A DNA stretch of 64,000 bases from Candidatus Zhuqueibacterota bacterium (GTDB taxonomy: Bacteria > Zhuqueibacterota > Zhuqueibacteria > Thermofontimicrobiales > Thiofontviventaceae): positions 339-64,338 of the forward strand of contig JAZBPW010000174.1 in NCBI GenBank assembly GCA_036351795.1. The letters run 5' to 3'. Both the position numbers and the translations under genes were made by a program. The notes beneath the pieces are model-generated. The model saw only the letters and a program-made list of their open reading frames with translations, did not search any database and was not told the origin of the DNA. Positions 1,725 through 42,600 of this stretch are shown in pieces (position 1 is the stretch's first letter; every line of letters begins with the position of its first letter).

Positions 1725-1749
1725 ATTTAAATCAGGGAGTGAATGTGTA

Positions 1750-12700: not shown

Positions 12701-12748
12701 AAAGCCGGTAGCTTCAAAGCGACTCAGAAGATGATTTTGACCAAGTAA
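9737..12748 (+). CDS. Secreted 1003-aa protein with MAM-like/choice-of-anchor-J-like domain, FN3 domain and T9SS CTD
   Basis: AGGAGG RBS 5 nt upstream. Signal peptide MVKKMFTVVMVLFVMSFFAVSLLA. MAM-like signature ...VVRFRFFSDANTTSEHGWHIDNVEITDG. PNDQGG-initiated Ig/FN3-like module (VLDVPNDQGGKVLVSWEAS). FN3 (SVKLTWEAPVDEDFNYFALYRED...EYTYHLTAFDFSGNESGPA). CTD NNYPNPFNPVTTIKY...SGVYFYTMKAGSFKATQKMILTK. No HEXXH motif. Confidence 0.8.
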   Translation: MVKKMFTVVMVLFVMSFFAVSLLADNKVPATKKETVKKVDGLRLDKSTPVPKTEQVEVYASDFETEGEWTPEKVNEGGQEFVWTEADANSPTHSWNVPDDIAMDEASSNPTYAEVWGPEILLPTEVDGDPVARIEETYFVKAISPNTAEGGYVYDVWRALLAVENPFGTYWVGSDVDAFGGTGVSWWCANPDAGTYEDVWNTSLSTPTIDLSGAGTVTLSFKNAPDAEAGWDSCYVEISIDGGASWAVVDAYSEENDPVVYRDESYDISAFKSTDVVVRFRFFSDANTTSEHGWHIDNVEITDGATQFFFDDGGDTAPLALIPDPEPYSVKELHYDYDRNQYGPNEWTIVDEAAIFNGSLDITEYAGETVKLGFRVSSDGWNRLGEAPGAGIFFDDVAVHAISGQPHDAAIGRVMVGYPTTNGVVTPLAVDVANIGFEPETGIGLWYAFDDQQGMPVPPFIALDAGQDTTRIFGTVMAQPVGPHTMRSWATLANDGDLSNNENVSPVFATHPPGYAEMGYDNRYGAAFLTTSTSFVWFSPLPELASTPSFDLNWASVMFYDAGGAGDTLDVTIAEVDPNNPFTFLRVIHEGPEILPPGDFSTHYFDFDPPVKGLTGDIVVLVDMANSNGSGSVLMDDGTPWFGHNIFYDAPSDGWYYSGYGRLMNIGVSYYDAPEIMSVLDVPNDQGGKVLVSWEASLNEMGPFNIDMYGLWHKVDPDLFDMSTVNPVEVPNMDALYDYGKNAKKDDIVTVRTTEDVATWRFVGMVPPHPGMHHYSLAAGTWKDSTVVDGLYLNTYMVTAYAEDGFVDSEEAMGYSVDNLHPHVPMGFAAMESAGSVKLTWEAPVDEDFNYFALYREDMTEPVAMTTELEFVDTDVEIGKEYTYHLTAFDFSGNESGPADATLTMTSVIGSSNMIPTEFALRNNYPNPFNPVTTIKYELPDPSNVTIKVLNIAGQEVATLVNTDKTAGYHTISWDATNVGSGVYFYTMKAGSFKATQKMILTK

Positions 12749-16200: not shown

Positions 16201-16986
16201 ATTGTCGGCATGGAGGATTTCGAGACAGGATTGGCACATTGGAGTGGCGATTGGGGGCTGGACAGTATAACGGTGCATTCGGGCCGCTTCGCCCTGTCAG
16301 ATCATTCAAAATCCGGTATTGGTTATCCTGACAACAGCGAGTCGATCATCAGATTGAATGATGCGCTGGATTTTTCCGATGTGACTTCGGCATCGCTGCA
16401 GTTCTGGTCGAATCATGAGCTCGAAGATATGCAGGACTTCGGATACATAGAATTGAGCGGCGATGATGGTGCTACCTGGACAGGGATCGGGGAGTGCATC
16501 ACAGGCAGCTCCATCGATTGGAAGGAGTACAGTTATTCACTGGAGGATTTTATTGATTCCGGTGTTGACGTTTTTCAGTTGCGTTTTCGCCTGAGCACGG
16601 ATTCGTCGCAGGCAGTTCCGATGAGGGGATGGGCAATCGATGACATCAGGATCGTGAGCGAAACGTCAACATCGGCAGCAGGCATACTGACTGACGCGCA
16701 TGTGCCTGATAAATACTATTTGTCCCAGAATTATCCCAATCCGTTCAATCCGGGAACTTCGATTGAATACGGATTGTCGGCATATTCGAAAGTAAGAATT
16801 AATATTTACAACCTTTTAGGACAGCGGATCATGACGCTGGTCAATGAATTTAAAAGCGCGGGAGTGCATGAAGTCGCATGGGATGGTCTTGATGCAAATG
16901 GAGTCCGCCAACCCAGCGGAGTATATATTTACACAATGATAACGAACGAATATATTCAAACCAATAAAATGATATTGTTGAGGTAA
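13264..16986 (+). CDS. Subtilisin-family (S8) serine protease, multidomain, with MAM-like module and T9SS CTD
   Basis: TTG start is the first start codon after the in-frame stop at 13210. Short signal peptide MTKSVVFLLVIHLMTGVVTG. Pro-domain ending ...VTYAEPDYLLP. Catalytic triad motifs IIDTGVDWDHPDL (Asp), DGHGTHVAGIAAA (His) and GTSYCSPQAAGVAALI (Ser). MAM-like module ...FQLRFRLSTDSSQAVPMRGWAIDDIRIV. CTD QNYPNPFNPGTSIEY...SGVYIYTMI...NKMILLR. Confidence 0.9.
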   Translation: MTKSVVFLLVIHLMTGVVTGKEHSPRPHLPGIVIVKLNADIPFRSSHAYQHLTEQHAVLKVETMFEKMNRHSLVKKSLGGIYRLQLPDHADVMKVCGMLNGLSDVTYAEPDYLLPVEAVPNDPYFNIQYHLTQIRAAEAWDVVKGDSTVIIGIIDTGVDWDHPDLANAIWQNADEKLNGEDTDNNGYADDVRGWDFLESHAFDYPPAYGEDGIEADNDPMDFDGHGTHVAGIAAAVTDNAEGVASVSWNCSIMPLRAGYKATDGYGYIVMSAAAEAFVYAADNGAHVVNLSTSASNTIVDAARYAFDSGLVIVKSAGNDNRNTPDLLETQPYCLNVAAVDRFDQKTWYSDYGKWVSLSAPGERSYTTVIDKYGSVQGTSYCSPQAAGVAALIRTQHPDWSAADIIFQIMGTADNINQQNPNYSGLLGSGRINAIRAVTESVIPAPNIEMNAIVLIGGDDDGIAEAGERLSLVVEFVNRMGTAVNVMAELMIDHWAVSIDKGSASIGDIPGLRNLDENVKDNEADPFIITIDSLAIPQRVSGTVKVHDQNGYSQSFAIHFAISPSLLVVDDEELQNESYYYAALDSLGISYDCWNRDAQGSPFILGRYPSVVWFCGHWTIPSLDAGDRDVLKAYLDQGGSLFLSGQDIGWDLCDPNPPKDFANQRIISDGESKNFYEDYLRAIYLNDVAGYSQLSGVSGDPIGDGTSFQIYQPGRPVTEQYPSEIAPTDSAAPVFVYPDQGAAAVRHSGIYRSVYFAFGGWEAIVDEAQRFIVMDRTLEWMNGVSIVHTPLSNVGDTTQARTVNAQVISAMSPIARVDLFWDTDGEYPFKRKKMEKRDGNTYEGMIPAAGSNEVQYFILASTENGYTTPVKMHTYTSELDTVPPVISGVSSIPNSITRRSDHPVSAEVVDQYGVDTSSVKCEFRTSSNDSGSFHLTHQNGNLFSGILSGDFHYGDTVFYRIHAMDLSLEQNKTVSRKLHFIVGMEDFETGLAHWSGDWGLDSITVHSGRFALSDHSKSGIGYPDNSESIIRLNDALDFSDVTSASLQFWSNHELEDMQDFGYIELSGDDGATWTGIGECITGSSIDWKEYSYSLEDFIDSGVDVFQLRFRLSTDSSQAVPMRGWAIDDIRIVSETSTSAAGILTDAHVPDKYYLSQNYPNPFNPGTSIEYGLSAYSKVRINIYNLLGQRIMTLVNEFKSAGVHEVAWDGLDANGVRQPSGVYIYTMITNEYIQTNKMILLR

Positions 16987-16993
16987 TGTAAAA

Positions 16994-19330
16994 ATGAAAA
17001 AACAACTCATCTTTTGTCTGTTATTGATTCCTTTCAGCAGTGGGGTGGCTTCTGACTATAATGCAGAGGCTATTAATCGCATCATCGGGGAGAAGGGTGC
17101 CCGGTGGACTGCCACAGAAAATCGCATTACCGCCATGGCCGCGGAAGAGCGAAAAATGTTGTGCGGTGAAATTATGCTGCCGGATTACTCTGTGAATCCG
17201 GAAATCCTCTCCTTCGAGGCTGTGAAAGATATCCCGTCACATTTAGACTGGCGTGACAATAACGGAAATTGGGTGACACCAGTTCGGGATCAGGGACAAT
17301 GCGGAAGCTGCGTCGCGTTCTCAGAATTGGGACAAATTGAGTCCTGGTGGAAAATCCGTAACGCGAATACCGATACGGTGATCGACCTCTCAGAGCAGAT
17401 CATTCTTTCATGCAGTAATGCTGTGACTTGCGCGCATGGAGGATATATGTCCAGTGTGCTTGAATGGGTAAAACTCAACGGAGTGCCGCTCGAGGAATGC
17501 ATGAGCTATCAGGCCTTGGATGGCATACCATGCAGCAATGCGTGTGATGACTGGCAGGCTCAGTCCGTGACAATCCCTGGCTGGGGATGGGTTTCGTATG
17601 AAAAAGATATTGTTGCAAACATTAAAAGCGCACTATATCGCCACCCGGTATCCGCCAGTTTTACTGTTTACAGCGACTTTTACGGGTATCATAGCGGTGT
17701 CTACGAGCATGTCTATGGTAATGCCGAGGGCGGGCATGCGATTCTGATCGTTGGATGGGATGATGAGGAGCAGAGCTGGATCTGCAAAAACAGCTGGGGA
17801 GTGGACTGGGGCGAAGAAGGCTACTTCAGGATCAAATGGGGCGACAGCAATATGGGAGACTACGCACCTTTCATTTATGATGGAATGACGAGCCGTGTTT
17901 CCGTACAGCTCGCGCCGGATATATTTGAATTCGATATGACAGTCGGCGATTCCTCGATACATGAGCTCGAAGTGACGAATATCGGGCCAGACAATCTGGA
18001 ATATGCCGCAATGGATTACATGTACGGGAATGGTGTGCCTGCATGGATGGAGATCATGGACGGCGGTGGTGTGCTCGCTCCAGGAGAGACAATGCCGATT
18101 CGCTTCAAAGTGAAGACCAGGGAACTCGATCCAGGCACATACCGGGCAAGACTGGGTGTCCGATCCAACGACAGTTATCTGCCGCTCAAGGAGCTGATCT
18201 GTCGTCTGAATCTCGTTCCACCCGATCATGATCTCAAAGTATCTCAAATCTTGCTTCCGAATGATTATGTGCGCATATTCTCCTATATGCAATTCACTTC
18301 GACGATAAGCAACGAGGGATTATCTTCTGAGACCAATGTCGATGTCCTGGGTACGATTCGAATGGGTGATCAGATTGTTTTCTCGGATACGGTGCGCATC
18401 GATGCGATCGCTCAATTCGGCGTGATTTCTATCAAATTTGATTCTCTTTATATTACTCAATCCGGTGTGCTGGATATTCACGTGGAGCTTCTCAATCTGG
18501 ATAATGATCATAACGGCTATAATGATTACCTGAATCAGACCGTTGAGGTGAAGCATCTCGTCGACAGCTTTGAAAATGAGTGCGACCTGTGGCTTTGTGA
18601 AGGCGGCTGGGGGGTGAGTAATTTGTTGAACGGGCATAGTGGGAGCCATTCGGCACATGTGAATTCAGGGGCATTTCCTTATTTAAATGACATGAGCGGA
18701 AGCATGACCTTTGTGCCGGGATTCGAACTGCACGCCGTGAAAAGTGCCGTGATAAAATATTATACGCGTTACGCGACTGAGAAAGACAAAGATGTCTGTT
18801 ACATCGAAGTCAGCGGTGACAATGAGAAATGGGATCTGATGGATACGATTTCAGGTATCAATCTGGCGTGGACGCAACGGGAACTGAATATCACCGATTA
18901 TATCAAGCCTGAATATCCAAGAGTCTGGGTGCGTTTTCGATTTATTTCAGACAGCGATATCAATAACGTGGGAGTGTTGATCGATGATATCGAGATCTAT
19001 CCGCTGGAGAGTACACATGTAAGTGACTTCAGCCAGCCCTCAGCACAACCGACTGACCTTGCGTTGTTTCAGAATTATCCGAATCCGTTCAATCCTGTGA
19101 CCACCATCAGCTATCGGTTACCGTCAGAGAGCGACGTCGATCTTTCCATTTACAATCTGAATGGTCAACGTATTCTCACATTGATGAATGGACGACAAAC
19201 CGCAGGACACTATACGATTACCTGGAACGGAAGGGATGATGCCGGTTCGCTGATGAGTTCCGGGATCTATCTTTACAGACTGAACGCGGGGAATGAGATC
19301 CAGACGAGAAAATTGACTTTGATGAAATAG
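16994..19330 (+). CDS. Papain-family (C1A) cysteine protease with Ig-like/CARDB-like, MAM-like modules and T9SS CTD (paralog 1)
   Basis: Starts 7 nt after the S8 stop, so it belongs to the same operon. Signal peptide MKKQLIFCLLLIPFSSGVA. Catalytic motifs VRDQGQCGSCVAFS (Gln/Cys), GGHAILIVGWDD (His) and ICKNSWG (Asn). Also GYFRIKWGD. CTD QNYPNPFNPVTTISY...SGIYLYRLNAGNEIQTRKLTLMK. Confidence 0.9.
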   Translation: MKKQLIFCLLLIPFSSGVASDYNAEAINRIIGEKGARWTATENRITAMAAEERKMLCGEIMLPDYSVNPEILSFEAVKDIPSHLDWRDNNGNWVTPVRDQGQCGSCVAFSELGQIESWWKIRNANTDTVIDLSEQIILSCSNAVTCAHGGYMSSVLEWVKLNGVPLEECMSYQALDGIPCSNACDDWQAQSVTIPGWGWVSYEKDIVANIKSALYRHPVSASFTVYSDFYGYHSGVYEHVYGNAEGGHAILIVGWDDEEQSWICKNSWGVDWGEEGYFRIKWGDSNMGDYAPFIYDGMTSRVSVQLAPDIFEFDMTVGDSSIHELEVTNIGPDNLEYAAMDYMYGNGVPAWMEIMDGGGVLAPGETMPIRFKVKTRELDPGTYRARLGVRSNDSYLPLKELICRLNLVPPDHDLKVSQILLPNDYVRIFSYMQFTSTISNEGLSSETNVDVLGTIRMGDQIVFSDTVRIDAIAQFGVISIKFDSLYITQSGVLDIHVELLNLDNDHNGYNDYLNQTVEVKHLVDSFENECDLWLCEGGWGVSNLLNGHSGSHSAHVNSGAFPYLNDMSGSMTFVPGFELHAVKSAVIKYYTRYATEKDKDVCYIEVSGDNEKWDLMDTISGINLAWTQRELNITDYIKPEYPRVWVRFRFISDSDINNVGVLIDDIEIYPLESTHVSDFSQPSAQPTDLALFQNYPNPFNPVTTISYRLPSESDVDLSIYNLNGQRILTLMNGRQTAGHYTITWNGRDDAGSLMSSGIYLYRLNAGNEIQTRKLTLMK

Positions 19331-19381: not shown

Positions 19382-22291
19382 ATGAGAAAATTGGCGCTGA
19401 TTATCGGTTTATTCCTACTGAATACTGCATACGCGACTGAAAATGTACAGAAAATAAATTCAATGATCATAGAAAGCAACGCGCAGTGGACTGCGGCTCA
19501 AAACTGGACGACGGCATTGACTCTCGAGGAAAGGCGCAATCTGTGTGGTTCATTCATGCAGCCGGCGAATCCGGCTGATGCTGAGTTGATGACGATCGAT
19601 GCTGTATCCAGCCTGCCGGCTCAATTGGACTGGCGGACGAATGGTGGAAACTGGGTGACACCGGTGAGAAATCAGGGGAGTTGCGGCAGCTGTTGGGACT
19701 TTTCAGCCGTAGGCCAGATCGAAGCATGGTGGAAGATCAGAAACGGGGATCCCAACGCGAATATCGACCTGTCCGAACAGTTTATACTCTCTTGCAGCGA
19801 TGGCGGTTGTGACGGATATTGGGTATCCGGTGCCCTCGATTTTGTAAAGGAGAACGGTATCCCCACGGAGAGTTGTTTTCGATACTATGCGGACGACACA
19901 ATCCCATGCAGCAATACATGCGAGAACTGGCAGGACGAGGCAATCAAGATTCCGGGATGGGGATATATCACGCTGAGTGAAGCCATCGTCGAGAATATCA
20001 AAAATGCGGTCTATAGACATCCCGTATCCGCTTCTTTCACTGTGTATGAGGATTTCAATTATTACTCCGGCGGCGTGTACGAACATGTCTGGGGTTCGGA
20101 ACTCGCGGGGCATGCGATTCTCATCGTCGGCTGGAATGATGCGGAACAGAGCTGGATATGTAAAAACAGCTGGGGTGAAAACTGGGGTGAAAATGGATAT
20201 TTCCGGATCAAGTGGGGCGACAGCGGTATGGGAACATACATGTCATTCATCTGGGATGATGTGATCGGTAATTCAAGTCTGTCTGTGACCCCGGAGAATC
20301 TGCAGTTCTCGCTTTTTTCCGGTGAACAATTTGAACAGGATCTGCTCATCACCAACAACGGCCTTGAGCAACTTGAATTCATACTCATCGATTACGAAGT
20401 ACCCATTGCATTTCATACGGACGATTTCAATGCATGGGATGGTATGTCGTGGTGGTGCGGCGATGAAAAGATCGGTGGATATGAAGATCACTGGCTGCAA
20501 TATCTGGATACACCGGTGATTGACCTGTCAACGACATCTCAGCCGGAGTTGACATTCAAAGTCCGGTGGGATGTCGAAAGAGCGGAAGGCGCCAGTCCGC
20601 CATACGATGGATGGGATGGTTGTAACGTGTGGGTGTCAGCTGACGGAGGTGAAAGCTTTGAACCGGTCTATCCTGATTACCCTCAATATGACAGCAATTC
20701 ACTCTTCAGCTTCGGTGATGTGGAACAGGGTTGGGATCTGGGGAGCGGCGTGCCCGGGTGGACCGGGAGCAGCGCGGGCTGGCAGGACGCGAAAGTCAAT
20801 CTGGCTGCATACCAGTACGCAACAAATGTGGTCATACGGTTCGCGTTTGCCTCTGACAAGGGGCTTTGCACCAACGACGATCCGGGCCTGACAGGCTTTT
20901 TTGTGGATGAGGTGATAGTGACAGATGGCACGAATGTCCTGTTTGGCGATAGTGCGGAAACGGATACGGAAATGTTAGCGAGGGGGTATGGATCAAAGAA
21001 TGCTGACTGGATGCAGATCAGTTACGATGCGGGTCTTTTGAGGACAGCCGAATCAATAAGAGCCACAGTAAAAATCGACACGAGAGATCTGGCTCCCGGT
21101 AATTACCGCGGATTGATACAGATGAATACAAACGATACGACGCACTCCATGCTTGAACTCCCGGTACAACTGGACGTGAAGATGGCGAGCCATGATCTTG
21201 CTGTCGAAGAAATTATTGTCCCTGATTATGGTCTGGCCATCCTTTCCTCTCAGGAAATTGAGGCTGTCGTTGAAAACAAAGGGTACTCTCAGGAGAGCAA
21301 TATCAGTGCTGTATGCACGATCGCCAGTGATGATCTTGTCATCTACAACGATATCGTGCAAATCGGTTCACTGGCATCAGGTGCCAGAGAAGTCATTCAA
21401 TTTGCGCCTTTCTATGCTACAGAAGTGGGCGTGATGAAAATACGCGTGGAATTGTCAGACGTCGATGATTTCAATAATTTCAATAATGCTATGGAGACAG
21501 AATTAACCATCACCAACATGTTTGAGAGCTTTGAAAGTCTGGATGGAAAATGGAAGCTGTCGGGCGGGTGGGGAACGACCATGTTTTACGGCGCGCGTAC
21601 CGGTGAAATGGCTGCGCACGTGAATAACGGCGTCATTCCTTATTCGAATGATATGAACGCGTTCATGACTTACGACGAGGGCATCAATGTACAGAATCTG
21701 AGTGCATTGAAGCTCAAGTATTATGCCAAATATTTCACGGAAAAAGACAATGATTTCTGTTACCTTGAAGTGAGCCCGGATAAAAGGACATGGACGGCTG
21801 AAGATTCGATCTCGGGGATGGACCTGACCTGGGCACAGCGGGAAGTCGATTTGAAAGAATATCTTGGTCAGGGCGAGAAAATATGGTTCAGATTTCATTT
21901 CGTCAGCAATGTTTCCATTGTTAATTTCGGCGTATTAATCGATGATTTGGAGATCTATCCCACGCTGGCGACACGCGTTGTTGATCAAACACCTCAGGAG
22001 GGCATCCCGGTCGATTGGCAGTTGGGCCAGAATTACCCAAATCCATTCAACATGAAGACGACGATCTCGTACACGCTGAAAGAGGCAGGTCCTGTCACAT
22101 TGAAGATTTACGACACCACCGGACGGATCGTTCGGACTCTGCTTCATTCATCTCAATCAGCTGGTTATCATATAATTGACTGGAATGGCAGGGATGACTT
22201 TGGAATGGCAGTGAGTACCGGGGTCTATTTTTACAGGATGACGGCAGGAGCCGCCTACGCGGTAACGAACAAGATGATCCTGTTAAAATAG
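19382..22291 (+). CDS. Papain-family (C1A) cysteine protease with extra internal MAM-like insertion and T9SS CTD (paralog 2)
   Basis: Signal peptide MRKLALIIGLFLLNTAYA. Catalytic motifs VRNQGSCGSCWDFS, AGHAILIVGWND and ICKNSWGENWGENGYFRIKWGD. Inserted module WWCGDEKIGGYEDHWLQYLDTPVIDLS...GWDGCNVWVSADGGESFEPV...VVIRFAFASD...FFVDEVIV. CTD QNYPNPFNMKTTISY...TGVYFYRMTAG...NKMILLK. Confidence 0.9.
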   Translation: MRKLALIIGLFLLNTAYATENVQKINSMIIESNAQWTAAQNWTTALTLEERRNLCGSFMQPANPADAELMTIDAVSSLPAQLDWRTNGGNWVTPVRNQGSCGSCWDFSAVGQIEAWWKIRNGDPNANIDLSEQFILSCSDGGCDGYWVSGALDFVKENGIPTESCFRYYADDTIPCSNTCENWQDEAIKIPGWGYITLSEAIVENIKNAVYRHPVSASFTVYEDFNYYSGGVYEHVWGSELAGHAILIVGWNDAEQSWICKNSWGENWGENGYFRIKWGDSGMGTYMSFIWDDVIGNSSLSVTPENLQFSLFSGEQFEQDLLITNNGLEQLEFILIDYEVPIAFHTDDFNAWDGMSWWCGDEKIGGYEDHWLQYLDTPVIDLSTTSQPELTFKVRWDVERAEGASPPYDGWDGCNVWVSADGGESFEPVYPDYPQYDSNSLFSFGDVEQGWDLGSGVPGWTGSSAGWQDAKVNLAAYQYATNVVIRFAFASDKGLCTNDDPGLTGFFVDEVIVTDGTNVLFGDSAETDTEMLARGYGSKNADWMQISYDAGLLRTAESIRATVKIDTRDLAPGNYRGLIQMNTNDTTHSMLELPVQLDVKMASHDLAVEEIIVPDYGLAILSSQEIEAVVENKGYSQESNISAVCTIASDDLVIYNDIVQIGSLASGAREVIQFAPFYATEVGVMKIRVELSDVDDFNNFNNAMETELTITNMFESFESLDGKWKLSGGWGTTMFYGARTGEMAAHVNNGVIPYSNDMNAFMTYDEGINVQNLSALKLKYYAKYFTEKDNDFCYLEVSPDKRTWTAEDSISGMDLTWAQREVDLKEYLGQGEKIWFRFHFVSNVSIVNFGVLIDDLEIYPTLATRVVDQTPQEGIPVDWQLGQNYPNPFNMKTTISYTLKEAGPVTLKIYDTTGRIVRTLLHSSQSAGYHIIDWNGRDDFGMAVSTGVYFYRMTAGAAYAVTNKMILLK

Positions 22292-31888: not shown

Positions 31889-34243
31889 ATGGGCAAGTTT
31901 TCAATCCTTGACTCCAAGACCCCACCCGAGAACCTCGAATTACTCTTTGATCAGGAAAAGGACAGCTATGTTTTCAGTATCGATAATACCGAAGACTCCG
32001 TAGCTGTCGAAGAGATCGTTGATGACCGGGAAGAGGACGTTGTACCAGAGCTGTGTGAAAATGCCCTCACGGTACTACAGAAAAGATATCTCCTGAAGAA
32101 TAAAGAAGGAAAGATCGTCGAGGATCCGGAGCAGATGTTCCGCCGTGTCGCACGTGTGATCGCCTCGGCCGATAAGAATTATGATCCAGAAGCGGATATC
32201 GAGTCCGTTGAGAGAGAATTTTACAATGTCATGGCGCGGCTTGAGTTTCTGCCCAATTCTCCGACGCTGATGAACGCGGGACGCAAGCTGGGGCAGCTTT
32301 CCGCCTGTTTTGTGCTGCCTGTCGAAGACTCCATGGAGTCTATTTTCGAGACGATCAAGAATACGGCGTTGATCCATAAAAGCGGCGGGGGAACCGGTTT
32401 CTCTTTCTCCAGAATACGACCGAGAAATGATCTTGTTCAATCGACGAAAGGCGTTTCCAGCGGACCTGTTTCATTCATGACTGTTTTCGATGCTGCCACA
32501 GACACAATCAAGCAGGGCGGCACACGCAGAGGCGCGAACATGGCCATCCTGCGCATCGATCATCCCGATATTCTCGATTTTATCAACTGCAAACACGACC
32601 ATGACAAGCTCAATAATTTCAATATTTCAGTCAGCGTCACAGATAAATTTATGGAAGCCCTGGAGAAGGGTGGTGACTATGAGCTGATCAATCCCAGGAC
32701 AAAAGAGGTCGCTGGAAAGCTGAATGCCGCAAGCGTATTCGAGCTCATCGTAAAAAGAGCATGGCAGAATGGTGATCCGGGCATTGTTTTCATCGACAGG
32801 ATCAATGAGCATAACAGGACGCCGGAACTGGGAGAGATCGAGAGCACGAATCCGTGCGGCGAGCAACCCCTCCTTCCATATGAGAGCTGTAACCTCGGAT
32901 CGATCAACCTGTCGAAAATGGTGACCGGTGGCGAGATCAACTACAACAAAATCAAGCGAACGGTGCATACGGCGATTCACTTTCTGGACAATGTCATAGA
33001 CGTAAACCGCTACCCGCTGCCACAGATAGAAAAAATCACCAGGGCGAATCGAAAAATAGGTCTTGGTGTGATGGGCTTCGCGGACATGCTGATCAAGCTG
33101 GGAATTCCATATAATGACGATCACGCAATTGAAACCGCCCGGGCAGTGATGGAATTCATCAATGAGGAAGCCGAGATTAAATCTGAAGAGATCGCCAGGA
33201 AACGCGGCGAATTCCCCAATTTCGATTCCAGTCTCTACAAGACAACGGGTCATAACAAGGTTCGCAATGTGACTCGAACGACAATTGCGCCCACCGGTAC
33301 ATTGAGCATCATCGCGGACTGTTCGTCGGGTATCGAGCCGCTCTTTGCCGTCTGCTTCGTTCGAAACGTACTCGATGACAACAGGCTGTTGTACACGCAC
33401 CCGGAATTTGAAAAAATGGCAAGGGAAAGAGGTTTTTACTCTCCCGAGCTCATGGACAACATCGCGGTTGAAGGAGGCGTGCAAAAGTTCGATGAAGTAC
33501 CCGAAGATTTGAAAAGCCTGTTTATCACATCGCATGATATTGAACCGAAGTGGCATGTCAAGATGCAGGCGGCATTTCAGGAATTCACCGATAACGCGGT
33601 TTCGAAGACGGTGAATTTTCCGAATGACGCCACCGAGACAGATGTCAGAGAAGTGTATATGCTTGCTTACAAGCATGGATGTAAAGGCGTGACAATCTAT
33701 CGCGATGGAAGCCGGGACGTCCAGGTTCTGAAGAAAGGCACAAAACCGGAGGCGAAGGATACACAGGAGGCGGTAGAAAATCTCGCAGCCACCGGTAAAA
33801 TGGTGCGACCTGAAATCCTGGATGGGAAAACGATCAAGATGAAAACGGGCTGTGGCTCGCTCTATGTAACCATCAATGAGGAGAATGGCGTACCCTTTGA
33901 ATTATTCAATACCATGGGCAAAGCAGGGGGATGTGCTGCGAGCCAGTCCGAAGCCATCGGTAGGCTGGTATCCCTCACGCTACGCCGCGGCATTTCTTTC
34001 GAAGATATTGTGAAAGAACTTGGCGGCATCAGTTGTCACAAACCGCATGGGATTGGTCGCCGTAAAAATCTTTCCTGTTCAGATGCGATCGCGAATGCGA
34101 TCAACATCTATCTTCAACACGAAGGCATGGGCAAGGGCAAGCTTGAACAGCAAGGCGGGGCATGTCCTGAGTGCGGCGGCCCGATCGAACACGAAAGCGG
34201 CTGCGCCGTATGCCGGACCTGTGGCTATTCCGAGTGCCAGTAA
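31889..34243 (+). CDS. nrdJ: Adenosylcobalamin-dependent ribonucleotide reductase (class II)
   Basis: Active-site motif TNPCGEQPLLPYESCNLGSINL. Other matches are LPNSPTLMNAG, ACFVLPVEDSM and a C-terminal Cys-rich Zn tail CPECGGPIEHESGCAVCRTCGYSEC. Length 784 aa, with no intein-sized insertion. Confidence 0.93.
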   Translation: MGKFSILDSKTPPENLELLFDQEKDSYVFSIDNTEDSVAVEEIVDDREEDVVPELCENALTVLQKRYLLKNKEGKIVEDPEQMFRRVARVIASADKNYDPEADIESVEREFYNVMARLEFLPNSPTLMNAGRKLGQLSACFVLPVEDSMESIFETIKNTALIHKSGGGTGFSFSRIRPRNDLVQSTKGVSSGPVSFMTVFDAATDTIKQGGTRRGANMAILRIDHPDILDFINCKHDHDKLNNFNISVSVTDKFMEALEKGGDYELINPRTKEVAGKLNAASVFELIVKRAWQNGDPGIVFIDRINEHNRTPELGEIESTNPCGEQPLLPYESCNLGSINLSKMVTGGEINYNKIKRTVHTAIHFLDNVIDVNRYPLPQIEKITRANRKIGLGVMGFADMLIKLGIPYNDDHAIETARAVMEFINEEAEIKSEEIARKRGEFPNFDSSLYKTTGHNKVRNVTRTTIAPTGTLSIIADCSSGIEPLFAVCFVRNVLDDNRLLYTHPEFEKMARERGFYSPELMDNIAVEGGVQKFDEVPEDLKSLFITSHDIEPKWHVKMQAAFQEFTDNAVSKTVNFPNDATETDVREVYMLAYKHGCKGVTIYRDGSRDVQVLKKGTKPEAKDTQEAVENLAATGKMVRPEILDGKTIKMKTGCGSLYVTINEENGVPFELFNTMGKAGGCAASQSEAIGRLVSLTLRRGISFEDIVKELGGISCHKPHGIGRRKNLSCSDAIANAINIYLQHEGMGKGKLEQQGGACPECGGPIEHESGCAVCRTCGYSECQ

Positions 34244-35895: not shown

Positions 35896-35924
35896 TTGAT
35901 TTTAACGGAGTTTGGTATTATATT
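35896..35924 (+). promoter_or_regulatory. Sigma70-type promoter driving the FMN riboswitch leader (TTGATT-17-TATATT)
   Basis: TTGATT at 35896-35901, a 17-nt spacer, and TATATT at 35919-35924. The -10 box lies about 25 nt upstream of the riboswitch P1 stem. Confidence 0.55.
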
Positions 35925-35948
35925 GATTATATAGTGACAAATATTCAC

Positions 35949-36121
35949 TTCTTCGGGGCAGGGTGAAATTCCCTGACCGGCGGTAAAAGCCCGCGAGTCG
36001 TGTGACATGACTGATCTGGTGGAATTCCAGAGCCGACGGTATAGTCCGGATGGGAGAAGAAATGCAAGCGACAAATCGTATTTCAAACCGCCCGAAGTTT
36101 ACACAATTCGGGTATTTTTTT
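35949..36121 (+). promoter_or_regulatory. FMN riboswitch (RFN element) with intrinsic-terminator expression platform
   Basis: The aptamer (35949-36060) reads TTCTTCGGGGCAGGGTGAAATTCCCTGACCGGCGGTAAAAGCCCGCGAG...GGTGGAATTCCAGAGCCGACGGTATAGTCCGGATGGGAGAAGA. It matches the conserved RFN core almost position for position (GGGGCAGGGTGAAATTCCC, ACCGGCGGT, AGCCCGCGAG, GCCGACNGT, AGTCNGGATGGGAGAAG). The terminator is CCCGAA (36091-36096) paired with TTCGGG (36107-36112), followed by TATTTTTTTT. Confidence 0.93.
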
Positions 36122-36157
36122 GCCAACTCAAAATGATCGGGTGTACGAAGGCTCGTC

Positions 36158-37822
36158 GTGCAGCTTCAATACAACATAAAACGGGAGAGTGAGATCAAAA
36201 CAAACCACGACATCATCGATACTGCTCAATTGCGGCAGGATGTCGGCGAACCAGCTGAAGATCGAGAGATCATCCTGGAATTCAAGAACATCTCGAAATA
36301 TTACGGTGAAACGGAAATTCTACAGGACATCAGCTGCCGGATTCATGAGGGAGAGTTTGTAAGTATTGTGGGGCCGAGCGGTTGCGGCAAGACCACGATT
36401 CTGCGAATCATCAAGGGCTTGTTGATGCCGGATTCGGGCAAGGTCTACTACAATCGCAGGATCATCAGGAGCAGGCGCGATATCGGCTTCATTTTTCAGG
36501 GTTCGAATTTGCTGCCCTGGCGCACGGTGATGGAAAACATCCGGCTTCCTCTGGAAATCTCACGCAGAGACAGTGCTGAAAATCAGGCAAAGATAAAGGA
36601 GTTCATCAGCCTCACCGGTCTCGCCGGCTCCGAAGATAAGTATCCGCATCAGCTGTCCGGCGGGATGAAGCAACTGGCTGCGCTCGCCAAGGCCCTTGTT
36701 GATGACGACAAGATCATTCTCATGGATGAACCTTTTGCCTCATTGGATCCGGCAACCCGGGAGATGATGGCGAAAAAATTACACGCGATCTGGAAGAAGA
36801 CGAATACCACGATCATTTTTGTCACGCATTTCATCGATGAAGCCGTTTTTCTCTCGGACAAGATCATCGCGCTCTCTTCAAAACCCGGTCGCGTGCTGAA
36901 AGTCGCCCGTACATCGGACTACAACGGAGGTAATTACAACAGTTACAAATATTCGATCTCGAGCAAAATCGGCGAACTCATGACGTCTGAAAACGGCAGT
37001 GGTCAGGGTCGGATGAAGAGACAGAACAATAATACAAATAAATCCTTATCGAATGTAATGAAGGGAAAGCTCGGCTACATCATGTCTTTTTCGCTGTTGA
37101 TTCTATTCATTCTGTTGTGGAAGGGTATCCTCAATATAAGTGATTACCCGGAATTCATTCTTCCATCGCCTGGTGTCGTGTTGAGCCGGTTTTTTGAGGC
37201 GCTGTCGAACAACGACCTCCTCATGCATACCGGAATCACCTTTTTCGAGGCAGTGACCGGCTTCATCATCGGCACGTTTATCGGAGTATCGGCGGGGTAT
37301 CCGCTGTCGAAAATACCGCTACTCGAGAAGATGCTATATCCTTACATCACAGCCTCGCAAACGACGCCGATCATTGCTGTCGCGCCGCTCCTCGCGCTAT
37401 GGTTCGGATTTGGACTGACGAGCAAGATCTTCATCTCCGCGTTGATCGTCCTGTTTCCCGTCCTGCTGGCAACGATCACCAGCATTCGAACCGTGGAGCG
37501 CGACCTCGGAGATATCATGCGGGCGCTCGGCGCAAGCCGTTTGCAGACACTGCTGAAGCTTGAACTGCCGGGGAGTCTGCCATACCTGTTCTCGACGATG
37601 AAAGTGGCGATCACGCTATCGCTGATCGGCGCGGTGGTGGGTGAATTCGTCTCATCGAATCGCGGACTGGGATATCTGATCATCGCCGCGAAGGGCGTGC
37701 TGGACACACCGCTACTTTTTGTCACGATTTTCATGCTCGCCTTTGTGGGAATCACGCTCTATTCATCCGTTATCCTGATTGAGAAAATGCTATTTCGATC
37801 CCGCGGCTATTATGAGCGCTGA
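36158..37822 (+). CDS. Fused ABC transporter ATPase + permease (NitT/TauT-SsuBC-like), FMN-riboswitch controlled
   Basis: N-terminal half: Walker A GPSGCGKTT, signature LSGGMKQLAALAKAL, Walker B IILMDEPFASLD and H-loop FVTH. A low-complexity linker follows (YNGGNYNSYKYS...GQGRMKRQNNNTNKS). The C-terminal half is a six-TM BPD_transp_1-type permease with an EAA-like loop ALGASRLQTLLKLELPGSLPYLFSTMKVA. The GTG start is uncertain. Confidence 0.85.
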   Translation: MQLQYNIKRESEIKTNHDIIDTAQLRQDVGEPAEDREIILEFKNISKYYGETEILQDISCRIHEGEFVSIVGPSGCGKTTILRIIKGLLMPDSGKVYYNRRIIRSRRDIGFIFQGSNLLPWRTVMENIRLPLEISRRDSAENQAKIKEFISLTGLAGSEDKYPHQLSGGMKQLAALAKALVDDDKIILMDEPFASLDPATREMMAKKLHAIWKKTNTTIIFVTHFIDEAVFLSDKIIALSSKPGRVLKVARTSDYNGGNYNSYKYSISSKIGELMTSENGSGQGRMKRQNNNTNKSLSNVMKGKLGYIMSFSLLILFILLWKGILNISDYPEFILPSPGVVLSRFFEALSNNDLLMHTGITFFEAVTGFIIGTFIGVSAGYPLSKIPLLEKMLYPYITASQTTPIIAVAPLLALWFGFGLTSKIFISALIVLFPVLLATITSIRTVERDLGDIMRALGASRLQTLLKLELPGSLPYLFSTMKVAITLSLIGAVVGEFVSSNRGLGYLIIAAKGVLDTPLLFVTIFMLAFVGITLYSSVILIEKMLFRSRGYYER

Positions 37823-37946
37823 TGTGTGACATGCCAGGTGAACCATCCTTCCCCGATTGCGTTAGATAATATCCAATGCAGTGAAAAACAGAGCAATGCG
37901 AAAGAGCATCCTTGATATCGATGATGACGTAAAGACAGGAATCGAC

Positions 37947-38939
37947 ATGAAAAAATATTTAACGATGTGTGTTGTTTGCATGTGTCTGGCGTTCATGGCC
38001 TGCAGCGGCGGAAATGACCGGCACACCGGAGAAAAGGTGAATGTCGGCCTGATCTTCGTTCCGAACGTACAGTTCGCGCCGTTTTATGTGGCCATGCACA
38101 ATAATTATTATTCAGAAGAGGGGCTGGATGTGAGCTTTGAGTTCAGCAGTCCCGCCGACGCCATCCAATTCGCGGGCATTGGCAAATTCGACTTCATTAT
38201 TGGAGATGGTGAGCAGGTGATCATTGCGAGAGACAGGGGGCTTCCTGTCAGATACATCCTGTCGCTGTACTCAAAATACCCGGTGGCAATTGCCTCTTTG
38301 TCCGGCAGCAACATTGCAGAGCCACGGGATTTGAGCGGCAAAACGGTGGGTATACCTGAGTACGCCGGCGCATCCTGGATCGGTTTTAAATCATTTTTGA
38401 AAGCCACAGGAATCGATGAATCAGATTTGGAACCGGTTGCGATCGGGTATACGCAGTCAGCAGCGCTGGCGCAGGGAAGAGTCGATGCCGCTGTGGTGTA
38501 TATCAATAATGCGCCTGTTCAGCTGCGCATGGCGGGCGAGTCCATTCGGCTTATGCGTGTGGATGATCACATATCACTGGTCTCCGCCGGCGTTATTACA
38601 AATGATGCATTGATTGAAAACAGGCCGGTGATCGTTGAAAAATTTACCAGGGCGACTCGCCGCGGGATCGAATTTGTGAAAGCGAATCCACCAGAGGCTC
38701 TGGATATCTGCTTTCAATTCATCAGCGAAGGCGGCGAGAATCGAAAGGTACAATATGAAGTGTTGAAGGAGTCCATAAAACTGTATGATGATGAATTCAG
38801 TGTTTCAGCGGGTACCGGTGCGAGTGATCCGGGGGATTGGGCTAATACACAGAGTATTCTGTTCGATTTGAAACTGATAAAAGAAAAAAAGAATATCGAT
38901 GTGTACTTCACTAATAAGTACATAATAAATAATAACTAA
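37947..38939 (+). CDS. NMT1/THI5-like ABC substrate-binding lipoprotein (ThiY/RibY-like)
   Basis: Start moved to ATG 37947, giving a lipoprotein-like signal peptide MKKYLTMCVVCMCLAFMAC-SGG. Pattern NVGLIFVPNVQFAPFYVAMHNNYYSEEGLDV is typical of NMT1/THI5-like NitT/TauT binding proteins. Confidence 0.8.
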   Translation: MKKYLTMCVVCMCLAFMACSGGNDRHTGEKVNVGLIFVPNVQFAPFYVAMHNNYYSEEGLDVSFEFSSPADAIQFAGIGKFDFIIGDGEQVIIARDRGLPVRYILSLYSKYPVAIASLSGSNIAEPRDLSGKTVGIPEYAGASWIGFKSFLKATGIDESDLEPVAIGYTQSAALAQGRVDAAVVYINNAPVQLRMAGESIRLMRVDDHISLVSAGVITNDALIENRPVIVEKFTRATRRGIEFVKANPPEALDICFQFISEGGENRKVQYEVLKESIKLYDDEFSVSAGTGASDPGDWANTQSILFDLKLIKEKKNIDVYFTNKYIINNN

Positions 38940-38958
38940 AATCATAAATATATTTCAC

Positions 38959-38987
38959 TTGACATGAAACCAAATTATCTTTATATT
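38959..38987 (+). promoter_or_regulatory. Sigma70-type promoter (TTGACA-17-TATATT) upstream of the beta-propeller gene
   Basis: TTGACA at 38959-38964, a 17-nt spacer, and TATATT at 38982-38987. Confidence 0.55.
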
Positions 38988-39055: not shown

Positions 39056-41266
39056 ATGAAAAAAACAACGATTATTTTATTTATTCTTTCTACCCTTCTA
39101 CTTCACTCCGCGATTCACGCTGACATTGGTGACTGGACCACATTCACAAATAAGAGTGATGTGAGAGATATCAGCGTTCATGGCGATAACATCTGGTGCG
39201 CCACAAACGGAGGCGTGTTCAAGTTCAACGTTGTCGACAGCAGTTATGAGGTGTTTACCAATACCTCAGGATTGACGTCGAATGATATCAGTACGCTTGA
39301 AATCGACAGCAATGGCGACGTCTGGTTTGGTTTGACCGATGGATTTATCAATATTTATCGTTCGATCGATGGGGCATGGGATGTTATCGATGACTATTCC
39401 GGCCAGAAGATATACGATATGAAGTTTTACAGTGATTCGCTGTTTGTTGCCTTGGATATCGGCGTCAGTCTGTACAACATCGCGCGAAAAGAGGTGAAAG
39501 AGACATACAAGAATCTGGGACCGGGGTTTCAGGTGGAAATTCCGGTGAAATCGATACATCTGGAGGGGCGCGATATCTGGCTGGGGACAGATTACGGCAT
39601 TGCCCGCTCGAATCTGGATATCGCGAATCTATTGGCACCGGAGAGCTGGACGAATTACACCACATTTAATTCGCAGATAGTCAGCAATGAAATCAGATCG
39701 ATCACATCTCTGAATGGTATAATTTTTGTTGCTACAAATGAAGGAGTGAGTCAGTTTGATGGTGCTCTTTGGTCGGATTTCAGTACAGGGCTTGATATCC
39801 CCGATAAAAAAGATGTCTACGACCTGGATAGCTTAGAGGACATGCTCTACGCCGGGACGACCGTCGGTGTGTATCGGTTCATTGATAACAGTTGGAGAGT
39901 CGTTAAAGAAGGCTTCTGGAACGTGAATTCGCTGGCGGTTGACAGGAATGGCGACATTTGGGCAGGCCGGCCGAAAACTTCAAAGAGTCAGGGATTTTCA
40001 CGATTCAGCATGAGCAATAACGCGTGGACACACATTGTTCCACCAGGTCCGGCTGGTAACAATTTCAAAGGTTTGGCAGTAGATCACGATGGTGTGCTCT
40101 GGGGGTGCTCCACCACAGACGGCATTTTCCGCTTCGATGGTATCGATTGGCAAAGTATCCGGAAAAATGAGTACGGTTTCTCATCGGATGATTTCTGGGC
40201 CGTCAAAGTCGATAATGACAACAACAAGTGGTTTGCCAGTTGGGGGGGCGGCGTTGTGAAGATTGATGCCAATGATCAGATGACGTTCTATGATCATCGA
40301 TACCTCAGCGGTATCAACACGGATCCGGAATATATACCGGTCACAAATGTGGCGATCGATAACAACGGCAATGCCTGGTTCACGATATACGGTGCTGAGG
40401 ATGGAAACGTGGTCGCTGTTGTAACCCCTGACGGGCAATGGCAGTATTTTTCCACAACAGACGGTGTAAAGACCAATCCGGCAAATGAATTATACGGCAT
40501 TACATCAGACCGTTTCAATCGGGTCTGGGTCGGGTCGAGAAGCGGCATCACTGTCATCGATTATGGGAACACGCTGTTCGATAAATCGGACGACAACCTC
40601 ACTGGGACTTTAACGGTTAGCGATGGTCTGGTCAACAATGATGTGCGTTCGCTTGCAGAAGATTATGATGGTGCCATGTGGCTGGGCACCAATCAGGGGT
40701 TGAATTACTGGCTCGGTGGCAATGTGTATACCATGAGCGGCGTGATTCATGATAACATTCAGACCATTACCGTCGATGTGAGAAACAACAAATGGTTTGG
40801 AACGATCGGCGGAGTGAGTGTTCTGGCGCCTGATAATTACACCTGGACGCATTACACGACGGAAAACAGTCCACTTGTCGGCGCTAATGTGACAGCCATT
40901 GCCTTTGATGACGCCACCGGCAAGGTCTATATCGGAACAACGAACGGTCTGTCATGCCTGGAAACACCATTTGCAAAGGCACATGCAAATCTTGATCATG
41001 TACAGGCCGGGCCAAATCCATATATATTGAGCGAAGGACAGAAGTTTACAATATACAAGCTGGCTGATGAGGTATCCATCAAAATACTGACACCCGACGG
41101 CATGCTCGTGCGAGATGTCGGAAAAGATGATATTCAGGGATTTTACGTGTGGGATGGGCGCAATGATGACGGCGAGTTTGTCTCGAGCGGCATCTATATT
41201 TACGCTATATATGACGGGGATACAGGAGAGTCAAAAATCGGAAAAATAGCCGTCGTTCGGGAATGA
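39056..41266 (+). CDS. Secreted beta-propeller protein built of two-component-regulator-propeller (Reg_prop-like) repeats with class-2 C-terminal sorting-type domain
   Basis: Start moved to ATG 39056 (signal peptide MKKTTIILFILSTLLLHSAIHA). There are at least 12 repeats of the type V..IA.D..G..W.GT..G. (examples: DISTLEIDSNGDVWFGLTDG, FKGLAVDHDGVLWGCSTTDG, VRSLAEDYDGAMWLGTNQG). C-terminus GPNPYILSEGQKFTIYKL...SSGIYIYAIYDGDTGESKIGKIAVVRE. Confidence 0.75.
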   Translation: MKKTTIILFILSTLLLHSAIHADIGDWTTFTNKSDVRDISVHGDNIWCATNGGVFKFNVVDSSYEVFTNTSGLTSNDISTLEIDSNGDVWFGLTDGFINIYRSIDGAWDVIDDYSGQKIYDMKFYSDSLFVALDIGVSLYNIARKEVKETYKNLGPGFQVEIPVKSIHLEGRDIWLGTDYGIARSNLDIANLLAPESWTNYTTFNSQIVSNEIRSITSLNGIIFVATNEGVSQFDGALWSDFSTGLDIPDKKDVYDLDSLEDMLYAGTTVGVYRFIDNSWRVVKEGFWNVNSLAVDRNGDIWAGRPKTSKSQGFSRFSMSNNAWTHIVPPGPAGNNFKGLAVDHDGVLWGCSTTDGIFRFDGIDWQSIRKNEYGFSSDDFWAVKVDNDNNKWFASWGGGVVKIDANDQMTFYDHRYLSGINTDPEYIPVTNVAIDNNGNAWFTIYGAEDGNVVAVVTPDGQWQYFSTTDGVKTNPANELYGITSDRFNRVWVGSRSGITVIDYGNTLFDKSDDNLTGTLTVSDGLVNNDVRSLAEDYDGAMWLGTNQGLNYWLGGNVYTMSGVIHDNIQTITVDVRNNKWFGTIGGVSVLAPDNYTWTHYTTENSPLVGANVTAIAFDDATGKVYIGTTNGLSCLETPFAKAHANLDHVQAGPNPYILSEGQKFTIYKLADEVSIKILTPDGMLVRDVGKDDIQGFYVWDGRNDDGEFVSSGIYIYAIYDGDTGESKIGKIAVVRE

Positions 41267-42600
41267 AAATAAGAAGATTAGCGAGTTCACCGCTCACCAT
41301 ATTGTTCATATGCGCGGTTGTTATTTATTGTATCGTTCTTTGGCATATTTATCAGAACAGCGAGATCGCAATTACCGGAGACGCTGCCGAATATATTCGC
41401 AGCGCTCATAACCTGATTGATCACCATGTGATATACTGCGGCGACTTATCAGAGCCGGTCAATCCGGATCTTTTCAGCAGAAGACTGTTCATGTACCCGG
41501 CGTTGATCGCGTTTGTCATCTATCTTTTTAACAACTATTATCTTGTCATTGGTTTACAGATGATGCTTGTATTTATCAATGTGTTTTTGATCCTGACGTT
41601 GTTGAAGGAGATGAACGTTTCTGAAAAGTGGTCCCGGATCTGCGCGGCGATTTATCTGATATATCCTTCTCAGATTATTTTTACCGGCATTATCATGACT
41701 GAAATATTGTTGCAGTCTTTTCTGCTTAGCGCCTTTTTCTTTTACAGTCGCTTCTTCCGTGAGAGAACGCTCATGAACTTGTTCTTGTACAACCTGATGC
41801 TAATGGGCGCCGTCGCGACGAAGCCAGTGATGCTTTACATCTGGCTGCCGAATATTGTGGTGCATTTATGGGCATATGCGAAAGAGAGAAAGAGGTTGAT
41901 CCTGGTATTTCCGGCGATGTTGTTGATATTGATCTCAGCCTGGAGCTATCGAAACGAAAGGATGACGGGCGTTTATCATTTCTCTTCGATCAGGAATCAT
42001 AATCTGTTGAATTACAATATTCGCTCTTTGCTCACTGTTAAGTATGGACAGGTAGAGGCAGACAGGGTGATTGATGACATTGAAATGCATGCCGAACAGC
42101 GGAACACCTATCCGGAAAAGTATGATTATCTGGAGTCCAGGATCAAGGACATTCTGAAGGAATATCCGCTGGAATATGCAGCACACCATATGAAAGGGCT
42201 GTTGAACTTTTTCCTGGATCCGGGCCGTTTCGAGTTATGTGCCTTTTTTAACTGTGTGGAATCCGTGAGTTTTTCGACTCTCTATAACCGGTATGGATAC
42301 GGCGCTGTTTTCCGTTATTTAATGCGCGCACCAGTCCATATGCTGATAATTATTCTTGCTACGGCGATAATAAATCTTGCATTATTTGTATCGTTTTTTT
42401 ATTTTATAGTAGCCAGGCGAAGGATCGAATTCGAATGCTGGGCCTGGCTGATGATGATATGCGCGTATATCGCGTTGATAACCGGTCCGATCGGTGCGTC
42501 CCGATTCCGGTTGCCGATATTTCCTTTTCTGGTTATTATATTTGCGTTGACCCGTCTTCGCGTTTCGGGCATCAAATCTGTGGGGCCATTGATTTATTGA
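41263..42600 (+). CDS. Polytopic membrane protein, GT-C-fold glycosyltransferase-like (PMT_2/ArnT-like)
   Basis: ATGA start/stop overlap with the upstream propeller gene. About 10-11 predicted TM helices. The first-loop acidic motif ITGDAAEYIRSAHNL resembles the GT-C (GT39/GT83) catalytic-loop pattern. The assignment is tentative. Confidence 0.45.
   Translation: MKIRRLASSPLTILFICAVVIYCIVLWHIYQNSEIAITGDAAEYIRSAHNLIDHHVIYCGDLSEPVNPDLFSRRLFMYPALIAFVIYLFNNYYLVIGLQMMLVFINVFLILTLLKEMNVSEKWSRICAAIYLIYPSQIIFTGIIMTEILLQSFLLSAFFFYSRFFRERTLMNLFLYNLMLMGAVATKPVMLYIWLPNIVVHLWAYAKERKRLILVFPAMLLILISAWSYRNERMTGVYHFSSIRNHNLLNYNIRSLLTVKYGQVEADRVIDDIEMHAEQRNTYPEKYDYLESRIKDILKEYPLEYAAHHMKGLLNFFLDPGRFELCAFFNCVESVSFSTLYNRYGYGAVFRYLMRAPVHMLIIILATAIINLALFVSFFYFIVARRRIEFECWAWLMMICAYIALITGPIGASRFRLPIFPFLVIIFALTRLRVSGIKSVGPLIY

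Follow-up and report, generated by a model that had tools for sequence, protein, structure and literature searches.

The riboflavin transporter RibXY was predicted from the flavin mononucleotide (FMN) regulons of Chloroflexi as a homologue of the ATP-binding cassette (ABC) transporter ThiXYZ that lacks an ATPase (PMC3766115). RibXY of Chloroflexus aurantiacus (Caur_0816-0817) complements an Escherichia coli delta-ribB riboflavin auxotroph (PMC4418817), and the same article reports at second hand, citing Rodionova et al. 2014, flavin binding by its RibY and, in a few Chloroflexi, the presence of an ATPase gene, ribZ, together with ribXY. For Streptomyces davaonensis, RibXY is reported to import riboflavin with high activity (PMC11039241). 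The family was listed in 2015 for Actinobacteria, Chloroflexi, Proteobacteria and Thermobaculum (PMC4418817, Table 2), and is present in riboflavin prototrophs and auxotrophs alike (PMC6593275). Orthologues of the prototype C. aurantiacus RibY have been called at an identity of >38% over at least 80% of the length, with an upstream FMN riboswitch as a further criterion (PMC4418817); on a transporter gene, this RNA marks riboflavin uptake in the known cases (PMC4418817, Table 1). Here we describe a two-gene operon, ribZX-ribY, found behind an FMN riboswitch in a stretch of 64 kb (hereafter the window) from a metagenome-assembled genome (MAG) of candidate division KSB1, which the NCBI taxonomy equates with Candidatus Zhuqueibacterota and places in the Fibrobacteres-Chlorobi-Bacteroidetes (FCB) group. 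Judged from its sequence, this operon very probably encodes an importer of riboflavin or a close flavin that is repressed by FMN via a terminating riboswitch, and falls into the RibXY(Z) branch within the NitT/TauT or ThiXYZ-like ABC transporters. A preliminary description of this DNA had likewise pointed to a RibXY-like riboflavin uptake candidate of the FCB lineage, and the lineage agrees with the host taxonomy; its view that RibXY lacks biochemical characterization is outdated, given the complementation and flavin binding mentioned above.

Rfam scan of the whole window at curated thresholds yielded a single match, the FMN riboswitch aptamer RF00050 (Table 1), with a score of 117.9 bits (gathering score 66.2), an E-value of 7.2e-27 and a coverage of positions 1-138 of the 138-position model. 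The near-consensus RFN aptamer that had been read at 35949-36060 is thus a highly significant covariance match with slightly wider borders. A custom covariance model (R1), built from 20 riboswitches of the Chloroflexota loci described below, gave 115.8 bits for the same element, and the conserved core is invariant across the alignment of the 20 riboswitches. The score of the window aptamer on the Rfam model is higher than that of every Chloroflexota example (80-104 bits), and the aptamer of the KSB1 relative L081 reaches 119.1 bits. The aptamer ends at 36065 and ribZX starts at 36158 on the same strand, so that the RNA sits in the leader position of the transporter gene. Across the aptamer alignment (A3), the elements of KSB1, L089, L090 (Spirochaetota) and L050 are compact (~120-146 nt), whereas most Chloroflexota aptamers (L001-L072) carry long hairpin insertions in P2/P3 and extend over 150-220 nt.

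Downstream of the aptamer, the 7-bp stem GCCCGAA/UUCGGGU is followed by an A and a run of seven U residues at 36115-36121, matching the terminator previously placed at 36091-36121 to within one nucleotide. L081 keeps this hairpin with a single change that is located in the loop, and a hairpin with a U-run follows the aptamer in most other loci inspected. A generic terminator scanner listed no terminator between 35500 and 39500; it missed this hairpin because its loop limit is 8 nt, compared to the 10-nt loop found here.

Folding in silico links the two elements. If the 3′ arm of the terminator is blocked, or if the transcript ends before it, the fold of minimum energy (-53.8 kcal/mol) joins CUUCGGG (35951-35957) to CCCGAAG (36091-36097), in a pairing that encloses the aptamer. 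CUUCGGG spans the final four P1 bases on the 5′ side and the G residues at the start of the conserved J1/2. Upon enforcing P1, as expected with FMN bound, UUCGGG becomes the partner of CCCGAAG in a fold of -57.2 kcal/mol that contains the terminator. The two folds are predicted to be mutually exclusive, as in an OFF-type expression platform; the terminator 3′ arm copies the 5′ end of the aptamer, and the arrangement therefore has the classic switch design. These predicted folds favor the OFF control by transcription termination that had been suggested before. On thermodynamic grounds, we propose that transcription starts just upstream of 35945, and that at scarce FMN the strand CUUCGGG would capture CCCGAAG, thereby blocking the terminator and letting RNA polymerase read into ribZX-ribY. 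Once FMN is bound, P1 and the J1/2 core would be locked and CCCGAAG freed to pair with UUCGGG (36107-36113), upon which the hairpin and its U7 tract would stop transcription 37 nt before the start codon.

A candidate promoter resembling the sigma-70 type lies 21 nt upstream of the aptamer, with the hexamers TTGATT (35896-35901) and TATATT (35919-35924) separated by a 17-nt spacer. Both hexamers are unchanged in L081, while the neighboring bases differ, and their position would suit a transcript starting ~14 nt before the aptamer. Eight sites of this 9/12 type were found in the region against 6.3 expected from shuffles, which is not above chance; since the pattern is not enriched, the promoter named in the preliminary description is present as a sequence and stays a candidate in its function.

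The gene directly behind the riboswitch, ribZX, encodes an ABC ATPase and a permease in one 554-residue frame, identical to NCBI MEE4312633.1. It starts with GTG at 36158, and the motif GAAGG is located 6 nt before the start (36147-36151). The ATPase half shares 50% identity over 213 residues with RibZ of the Chloroflexota locus L001, compared to 36% with E. coli TauB, and the permease half shares 44% identity over 243 residues with RibX of L001 and 39% with RibX of L027 (a Chloroflexia MAG), compared to 31% with E. coli SsuC. The two halves are joined by a low-complexity linker (SENGSGQGRMKRQNNNTNKS...). We also considered whether the fusion might be an artefact of assembly or a frameshift; this was rejected, as the frame is uninterrupted and ABC_tran and BPD_transp_1 occur together in one protein of 505-585 residues in at least 120 independent clusters.

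The second gene, ribY, is separated from ribZX by 124 nt with no terminator found in between, in keeping with co-transcription. Its product is identical to NCBI MEE4312634.1, which is called there at 347 residues; the frame itself opens at GTG 37881. The start is probably ATG 37947, which is preceded by AGGAA 5 nt upstream; homologues span 93% of the longer frame (37881-38939). From this ATG the protein begins with MKKYLTMCVVCMCLAFMAC-SGG, a lipoprotein-type signal in which Cys19 falls on a nearly invariant column of the homologue alignment (A1; consensus G-C-S), suggesting that RibY is lipidated. RibY matches NMT1 (PF09084) over its full length with 166.9 bits, so that the lipoprotein-type NMT1/THI5-like binding protein recognized earlier is well founded. 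Its structure was predicted by AlphaFold2 from 24 homologues with a mean pLDDT of 91.3.

To place the operon, genomes were scanned at one genome per species with the homologue alignment as the query. The best 80 loci listed for relatives of RibY all belong to Chloroflexota and share 36-43% identity. The custom covariance model was run against all loci and detected a same-strand FMN riboswitch upstream of the operon in 64 of the 80, and Rfam at the gathering score confirmed the riboswitch in 19 of the 22 loci checked. Among the 16 loci without a riboswitch, 14 have less than 1.2 kb of upstream sequence before the contig end; in the other two, L059 and L066, the custom model gave no match despite adequate flank. 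The window RibY is 41% identical to RibY of L001 and 42% identical to that of L027, the latter over 299 of 330 residues, a value that serves as a proxy for the identity to the prototype RibY of C. aurantiacus.

A neighbor-joining tree of the binding proteins with 100 bootstraps placed the window RibY and its KSB1 relatives in a clade that unites all the riboswitch-linked binding proteins (83%), where the KSB1 proteins form their own subclade (76%) that is sister to the Chloroflexota RibY (75%). ThiY (PDB 3IX1) and 4NMY sit on a separate branch (84%), and SsuA and TauA of E. coli lie far outside the riboswitch-linked clade. The placement against ThiY, SsuA and TauA, as called for in the preliminary description, thus groups RibY with the riboswitch-linked proteins; as the tree places it there, it does not cluster with binders of sulfonate, nitrate or 4-amino-5-hydroxymethyl-2-methylpyrimidine (HMP).

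The operon of L001 consists of the riboswitch, ribX for a 301-residue permease, ribY and a gene for a 253-residue ATPase (RibZ), whereas in L027 riboswitch, ribX and ribY are present and the ATPase was not found nearby. A tblastn search over the 80 Chloroflexota loci revealed ribX, ribY and ribZ as separate genes in the order X-Y-Z in 61 loci; in 14, the flank contained no ATPase match. Because 61 of the 80 carry ribZ after ribY, the description of RibXY as ATPase-less holds only for a minority of Chloroflexota loci in MAGs. Given the matches of ATPase, permease and binding protein, all three components of the window system are therefore homologous to the FMN-controlled Chloroflexota system. 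Together, the RF00050 match, the tree and the identities to RibX and RibZ support the riboflavin uptake candidate. Its substrate would accordingly, by orthology to the characterized RibXY, be riboflavin or a close flavin.

For the import itself, the following route is proposed. The lipoprotein RibY would capture the flavin outside the inner membrane and hand it to a homodimer of the fused RibZ-RibX, in which one gene would provide two ATPase and two membrane domains, and this homodimer would import the flavin using ATP. The homodimeric stoichiometry is what the general architecture of type I ABC importers leads us to expect.

Genomic context was compared for eleven distinct loci of the fused type, including the window. 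Six of them combine an FMN riboswitch with the fused gene and an NMT1-type binding protein: the window, L081 (KSB1), L090 and L097 (Spirochaetota MAGs), L094 (a KSB3 MAG) and L089 (a MAG). The binding protein of L081 is 87% identical to the window RibY. L082 and L083, two KSB1-like loci, contain the fused gene and a binding protein of 57% identity within the same NrdJ ... PorZ-RecN synteny as the window, and no FMN aptamer was found in them; an Rfam scan of the L082 leader at E-value thresholds, aimed at a degenerate riboswitch, gave chance-level matches only. Judging by this distribution, the riboswitch seems to have been lost or replaced within the KSB1 lineage. The AT-rich leader of L082 (3023-3374) has a hairpin with a T-run, AAGCCCGAG...CTTGGGCTTTTTT, at ~3299-3330 just before the gene, and both L082 and L083 lack the ATP-grasp gene that the window has between nrdJ and the riboswitch. 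L095 and L096 have the fused gene and an NMT1-type binding protein with no Rfam element upstream; the operons (L095 3501-6138; L096 3501-6141) lie one beside molybdopterin oxidoreductase genes and the other beside a gene resembling homocysteine methyltransferase/methylenetetrahydrofolate reductase, and probably represent the same fused architecture with other substrates. In L088 and L091 the fused gene is an orphan. The genome GCA_052744975.1 encodes a RibY-like protein (L086 5001-5966, 48% identity) and a fused protein (L088 4001-5581, 46%) on different contigs, each among unrelated genes and without a riboswitch, the former following a gene for a PCMT-type methyltransferase. A gene for dodecin, a flavin storage protein, lies ~1 kb downstream of the Spirochaetota ribZX-ribY operon of L090 (7543-7749, minus strand). 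L089 (172-3465) and L097 (1-3155) have in common, ahead of the riboswitch, a cluster of genes for FAD-binding and Fe-S oxidoreductases (DHODB-like, Fer4, FAD_binding_2).

Combining these observations, one may imagine that fused RibZ-RibX and RibY constitute a self-sufficient, two-gene, homodimeric “half-transporter” type I importer, which has spread over KSB1, Spirochaetota and KSB3, is distinct from the three-gene form of Chloroflexota, and in this MAG is either the sole flavin source, implying auxotrophy and cross-feeding, or a carrier of a flavin other than riboflavin. As a whole, this combination is doubtful.

Several points weigh against an FMN-repressed riboflavin importer. The window RibY is only ~40% identical to the riboswitch-linked Chloroflexota RibY, which stand in for the experimentally tested RibY of C. 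aurantiacus in the comparison. No flavin-bound relative of RibY was found in the PDB by sequence and structure search, from which the residues that set specificity might be read, and the nearest solved structures bind thiamin or its pyrimidine precursor. The stem of the terminator is short, at 7 bp with a 10-nt loop and -9.8 kcal/mol when folded alone, and the unconstrained minimum-energy fold misses the full aptamer structure. In addition, RNA control is not obligatory in the KSB1 lineage because L082 and L083 lack the riboswitch, and the fused homologues of L095 and L096 without a riboswitch may serve other substrates.

The identity of ~40%, from which alone the substrate is derived, and the missing flavin-bound structure also leave some room for another flavin-related compound, such as FMN/FAD (flavin adenine dinucleotide), lumichrome, the riboflavin precursor 6,7-dimethyl-8-ribityllumazine or the antimetabolite roseoflavin, in which case the FMN riboswitch would still report the flavin status of the cell. 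The separate KSB1 subclade and the plural “flavins” that RibY of C. aurantiacus is reported at second hand to bind (PMC4418817) would fit such a substrate. However, the characterized members of C. aurantiacus and S. davaonensis import riboflavin (PMC4418817, PMC11039241), as do the known transporters under an FMN riboswitch (PMC4418817, Table 1), and we consider this alternative unlikely. The weak terminator stem and the dispensed aptamer of L082 might likewise indicate a riboswitch that is decaying or acts on translation only, with a hairpin and U-run that do not terminate in vivo. This is quite improbable in view of an aptamer that scores above those of Chloroflexota and is matched by that of L081, the seven bases over which the 5′ end of the aptamer is complementary to the 5′ arm of the terminator, as a working switch needs, and the terminator-like hairpins behind the aptamer in most other loci examined.

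Two further alternatives concern the transporter family. By sequence and fold, the closest structures of RibY are those of thiamin-related proteins: among PDB sequences, it scores 94.9 bits with ThiY (3IX1), which binds the thiamine pyrimidine precursor N-formyl-4-amino-5-aminomethyl-2-methylpyrimidine (FAMP), 81 with the thiamin-bound 4NMY, ~58 with THI5 and 20 with TauA, and 4NMY and 3IX1 are also the best structural matches of the model (TM-scores of 0.74-0.76, with 0.74 for 3IX1; 26-27% identity). RibXY itself was defined as a homologue of ThiXYZ (PMC3766115), so a ThiXYZ-like importer of thiamine or HMP/FAMP with an incidental upstream RNA deserves consideration. Yet no thiamine pyrophosphate (TPP) riboswitch (RF00059) is present in the window, the leader containing a near-consensus FMN aptamer, and RibY shares 30% identity with ThiY and 28% with 4NMY, compared to ~40% with the riboswitch-linked RibY, from which the tree separates them; this possibility is rejected as highly implausible. 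Importers of sulfonate, taurine or nitrate are suggested by the database names (“NitT/TauT family”) and by the best NCBIfam matches of the ATPase, which are of the SaoA, PhnT2 and TauB types. These matches stay far below the curated cut-offs, with 213.9 against 360 bits for SaoA (ATPase), 66.4 against 163.5 for SsuA and 27 against 304 for taurine_ABC_bnd (both RibY); SsuA and TauA show 23-27% identity to RibY in partial alignments and stand on the far side of the tree, and control by FMN would be senseless for such substrates. This assignment is rejected with virtual certainty. An importer of riboflavin or a close flavin under FMN control is hence the reading that we retain, and its features are compiled in Table 1.

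Table 1. Features of the ribZX-ribY operon and its leader (positions in the window)
Feature	Position	Strand	Basis or remarks
Candidate sigma-70-like promoter, TTGATT-17-TATATT	35896-35924	+	9/12 matches
FMN riboswitch aptamer RF00050, compact, without P2/P3 insertions	35945-36065	+	Rfam covariance match
Predicted anti-terminator 5′ strand, CUUCGGG	35951-35957	+	in-silico folding
Putative intrinsic terminator	36090-36121	+	stem 36090-36096/36107-36113, 10-nt loop, U7
ribZX, fused ABC ATPase (N-terminal) and permease (C-terminal), 554 residues	36158-37822	+	PF00005, PF00528
ATPase (nucleotide-binding domain) core of ribZX, residues 55-194	36320-36739	+	PF00005 (ABC_tran)
Low-complexity linker of ribZX, residues ~270-305	36965-37072	+	between the Pfam domains, boundaries approximate
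Permease (transmembrane domain) of ribZX, residues 372-545	37271-37792	+	PF00528 (BPD_transp_1)
ribY, NMT1/THI5-type substrate-binding lipoprotein, 330 residues from the preferred start	37947-38939	+	PF09084
ribY putative signal peptide with lipobox-like FMAC (Cys19)	37947-38003	+	sequence, alignment column

The operon is flanked upstream by genes for a B12-dependent ribonucleotide reductase and an ATP-grasp protein, and downstream by those for PorZ, a protein of no assigned family and RecN. No riboflavin biosynthesis gene was detected by Pfam on 36 open reading frames across the 64-kb window, which extends the earlier remark that none is adjacent. No terminator was detected after ribY. A near-consensus promoter match of the sigma-70 type (11/12), TTGACA-17-TATATT, is present on the plus strand at 38959-38987, separated by 20 nt from the preceding ribY stop and by 30 nt from porZ behind it, suggesting that porZ may be transcribed separately from the transporter. 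The gene between porZ and recN (41263-42600, plus strand) overlaps the porZ stop by four bases and encodes a 445-residue protein with no Pfam or NCBIfam match; in L081 and L082, both KSB1 relatives, a gene for 445 residues is likewise located at this place. The ribonucleotide reductase NrdJ (31889-34243, plus strand) matches its family with 1201 bits, and the window scan detected no cobalamin riboswitch or other Rfam element upstream of it. The first part of the window (14-22291) is a long run of secreted-protein genes with C-terminal sorting domains of type IX secretion, including an InhA-like MAM-domain protein (9737-12748), an S8 subtilase (13264-16986) and two papain-family C1 peptidases (16994-19330 and 19382-22291). 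Beside them stand a TonB-dependent-receptor-like protein (1720-4731), a 1237-residue protein with no Pfam match (4771-8484) and a PorV-like protein (8511-9545).

These results extend a characterized vitamin B2 uptake family, together with its RNA control, to an uncultured phylum of the FCB group, for which no vitamin metabolism has been described so far; a search of the KSB1/Zhuqueibacterota literature for riboflavin metabolism returned nothing relevant, and PMC11683472, on the metabolism of Zhuqueibacterota, makes no mention of riboflavin. What is new is the KSB1/FCB lineage and the fused RibZ-RibX, the family itself being already known and experimentally supported. No literature was found on the fused form or on RibXY in the FCB group, Spirochaetota or KSB3, in a search of incomplete coverage that gives weak evidence. 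In the family as sampled by MAGs, most members possess an ATPase, which is encoded by its own gene ribZ or forms one protein with the permease; the original view of an ATPase-less RibXY goes back to a small number of cultured Chloroflexi. With only two genes, the compact fused form would be well suited to structural and transport work on RibXY, and the “NitT/TauT family” annotation of these genes is better replaced by riboflavin ABC transporter. The finding is sound and fairly ordinary, and current understanding is not overturned.

Compared with known systems, ECF-RibU (energy-coupling factor type), RibM/PnuX, RibN, ImpX, RibZ of Clostridium and RfuABCD fulfil the same role, several of them under FMN riboswitches (PMC4418817). 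Their protein families are unrelated to the window system. RfuABCD, although an ABC system as well, has a binding protein of a different family and an unfused ATPase. ThiXYZ, represented by ThiY (3IX1) and 4NMY, shares the fold and the transporter superfamily and provides the best structural templates, whereas it differs in its ligand (pyrimidine precursor or thiamin), its typical TPP riboswitch and its separate clade.

RibXY of C. aurantiacus, like that of other cultured Chloroflexi and of Actinobacteria, resembles the window system in the FMN riboswitch leader and in a COG0600/BPD_transp_1 permease that is transcribed together with a COG0715/NMT1 binding protein. The main difference is the fusion, which the preliminary description left unremarked: the described RibXY has a stand-alone permease without an ATPase of its own (PMC3766115), whereas in the window a single chain carries the ATPase N-terminal to the permease. 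In addition, the KSB1 host lies outside the phyla listed in 2015 (PMC4418817), and the window aptamer is compact, compared to the Chloroflexota aptamers with their P2/P3 insertions. The Chloroflexota operon ribX-ribY-ribZ of L001 is similar in all its parts, sharing the FMN riboswitch and identities of 50% (ATPase), 44% (permease) and 41% (binding protein), but differs in gene order, with X, Y and Z as separate genes in 61 of the 80 loci against Z fused to X and followed by Y in the window. The fused operons of Spirochaetota (L090, L097), KSB3 (L094) and L089 share both architecture and regulation with the window, and their fused proteins are 40-43% identical to RibZ-RibX. By contrast, their binding proteins branch off separately and share only ~35% identity with the window RibY (29% in the case of L094), which is closer to the RibY of Chloroflexota than to the binding proteins of these fused operons.

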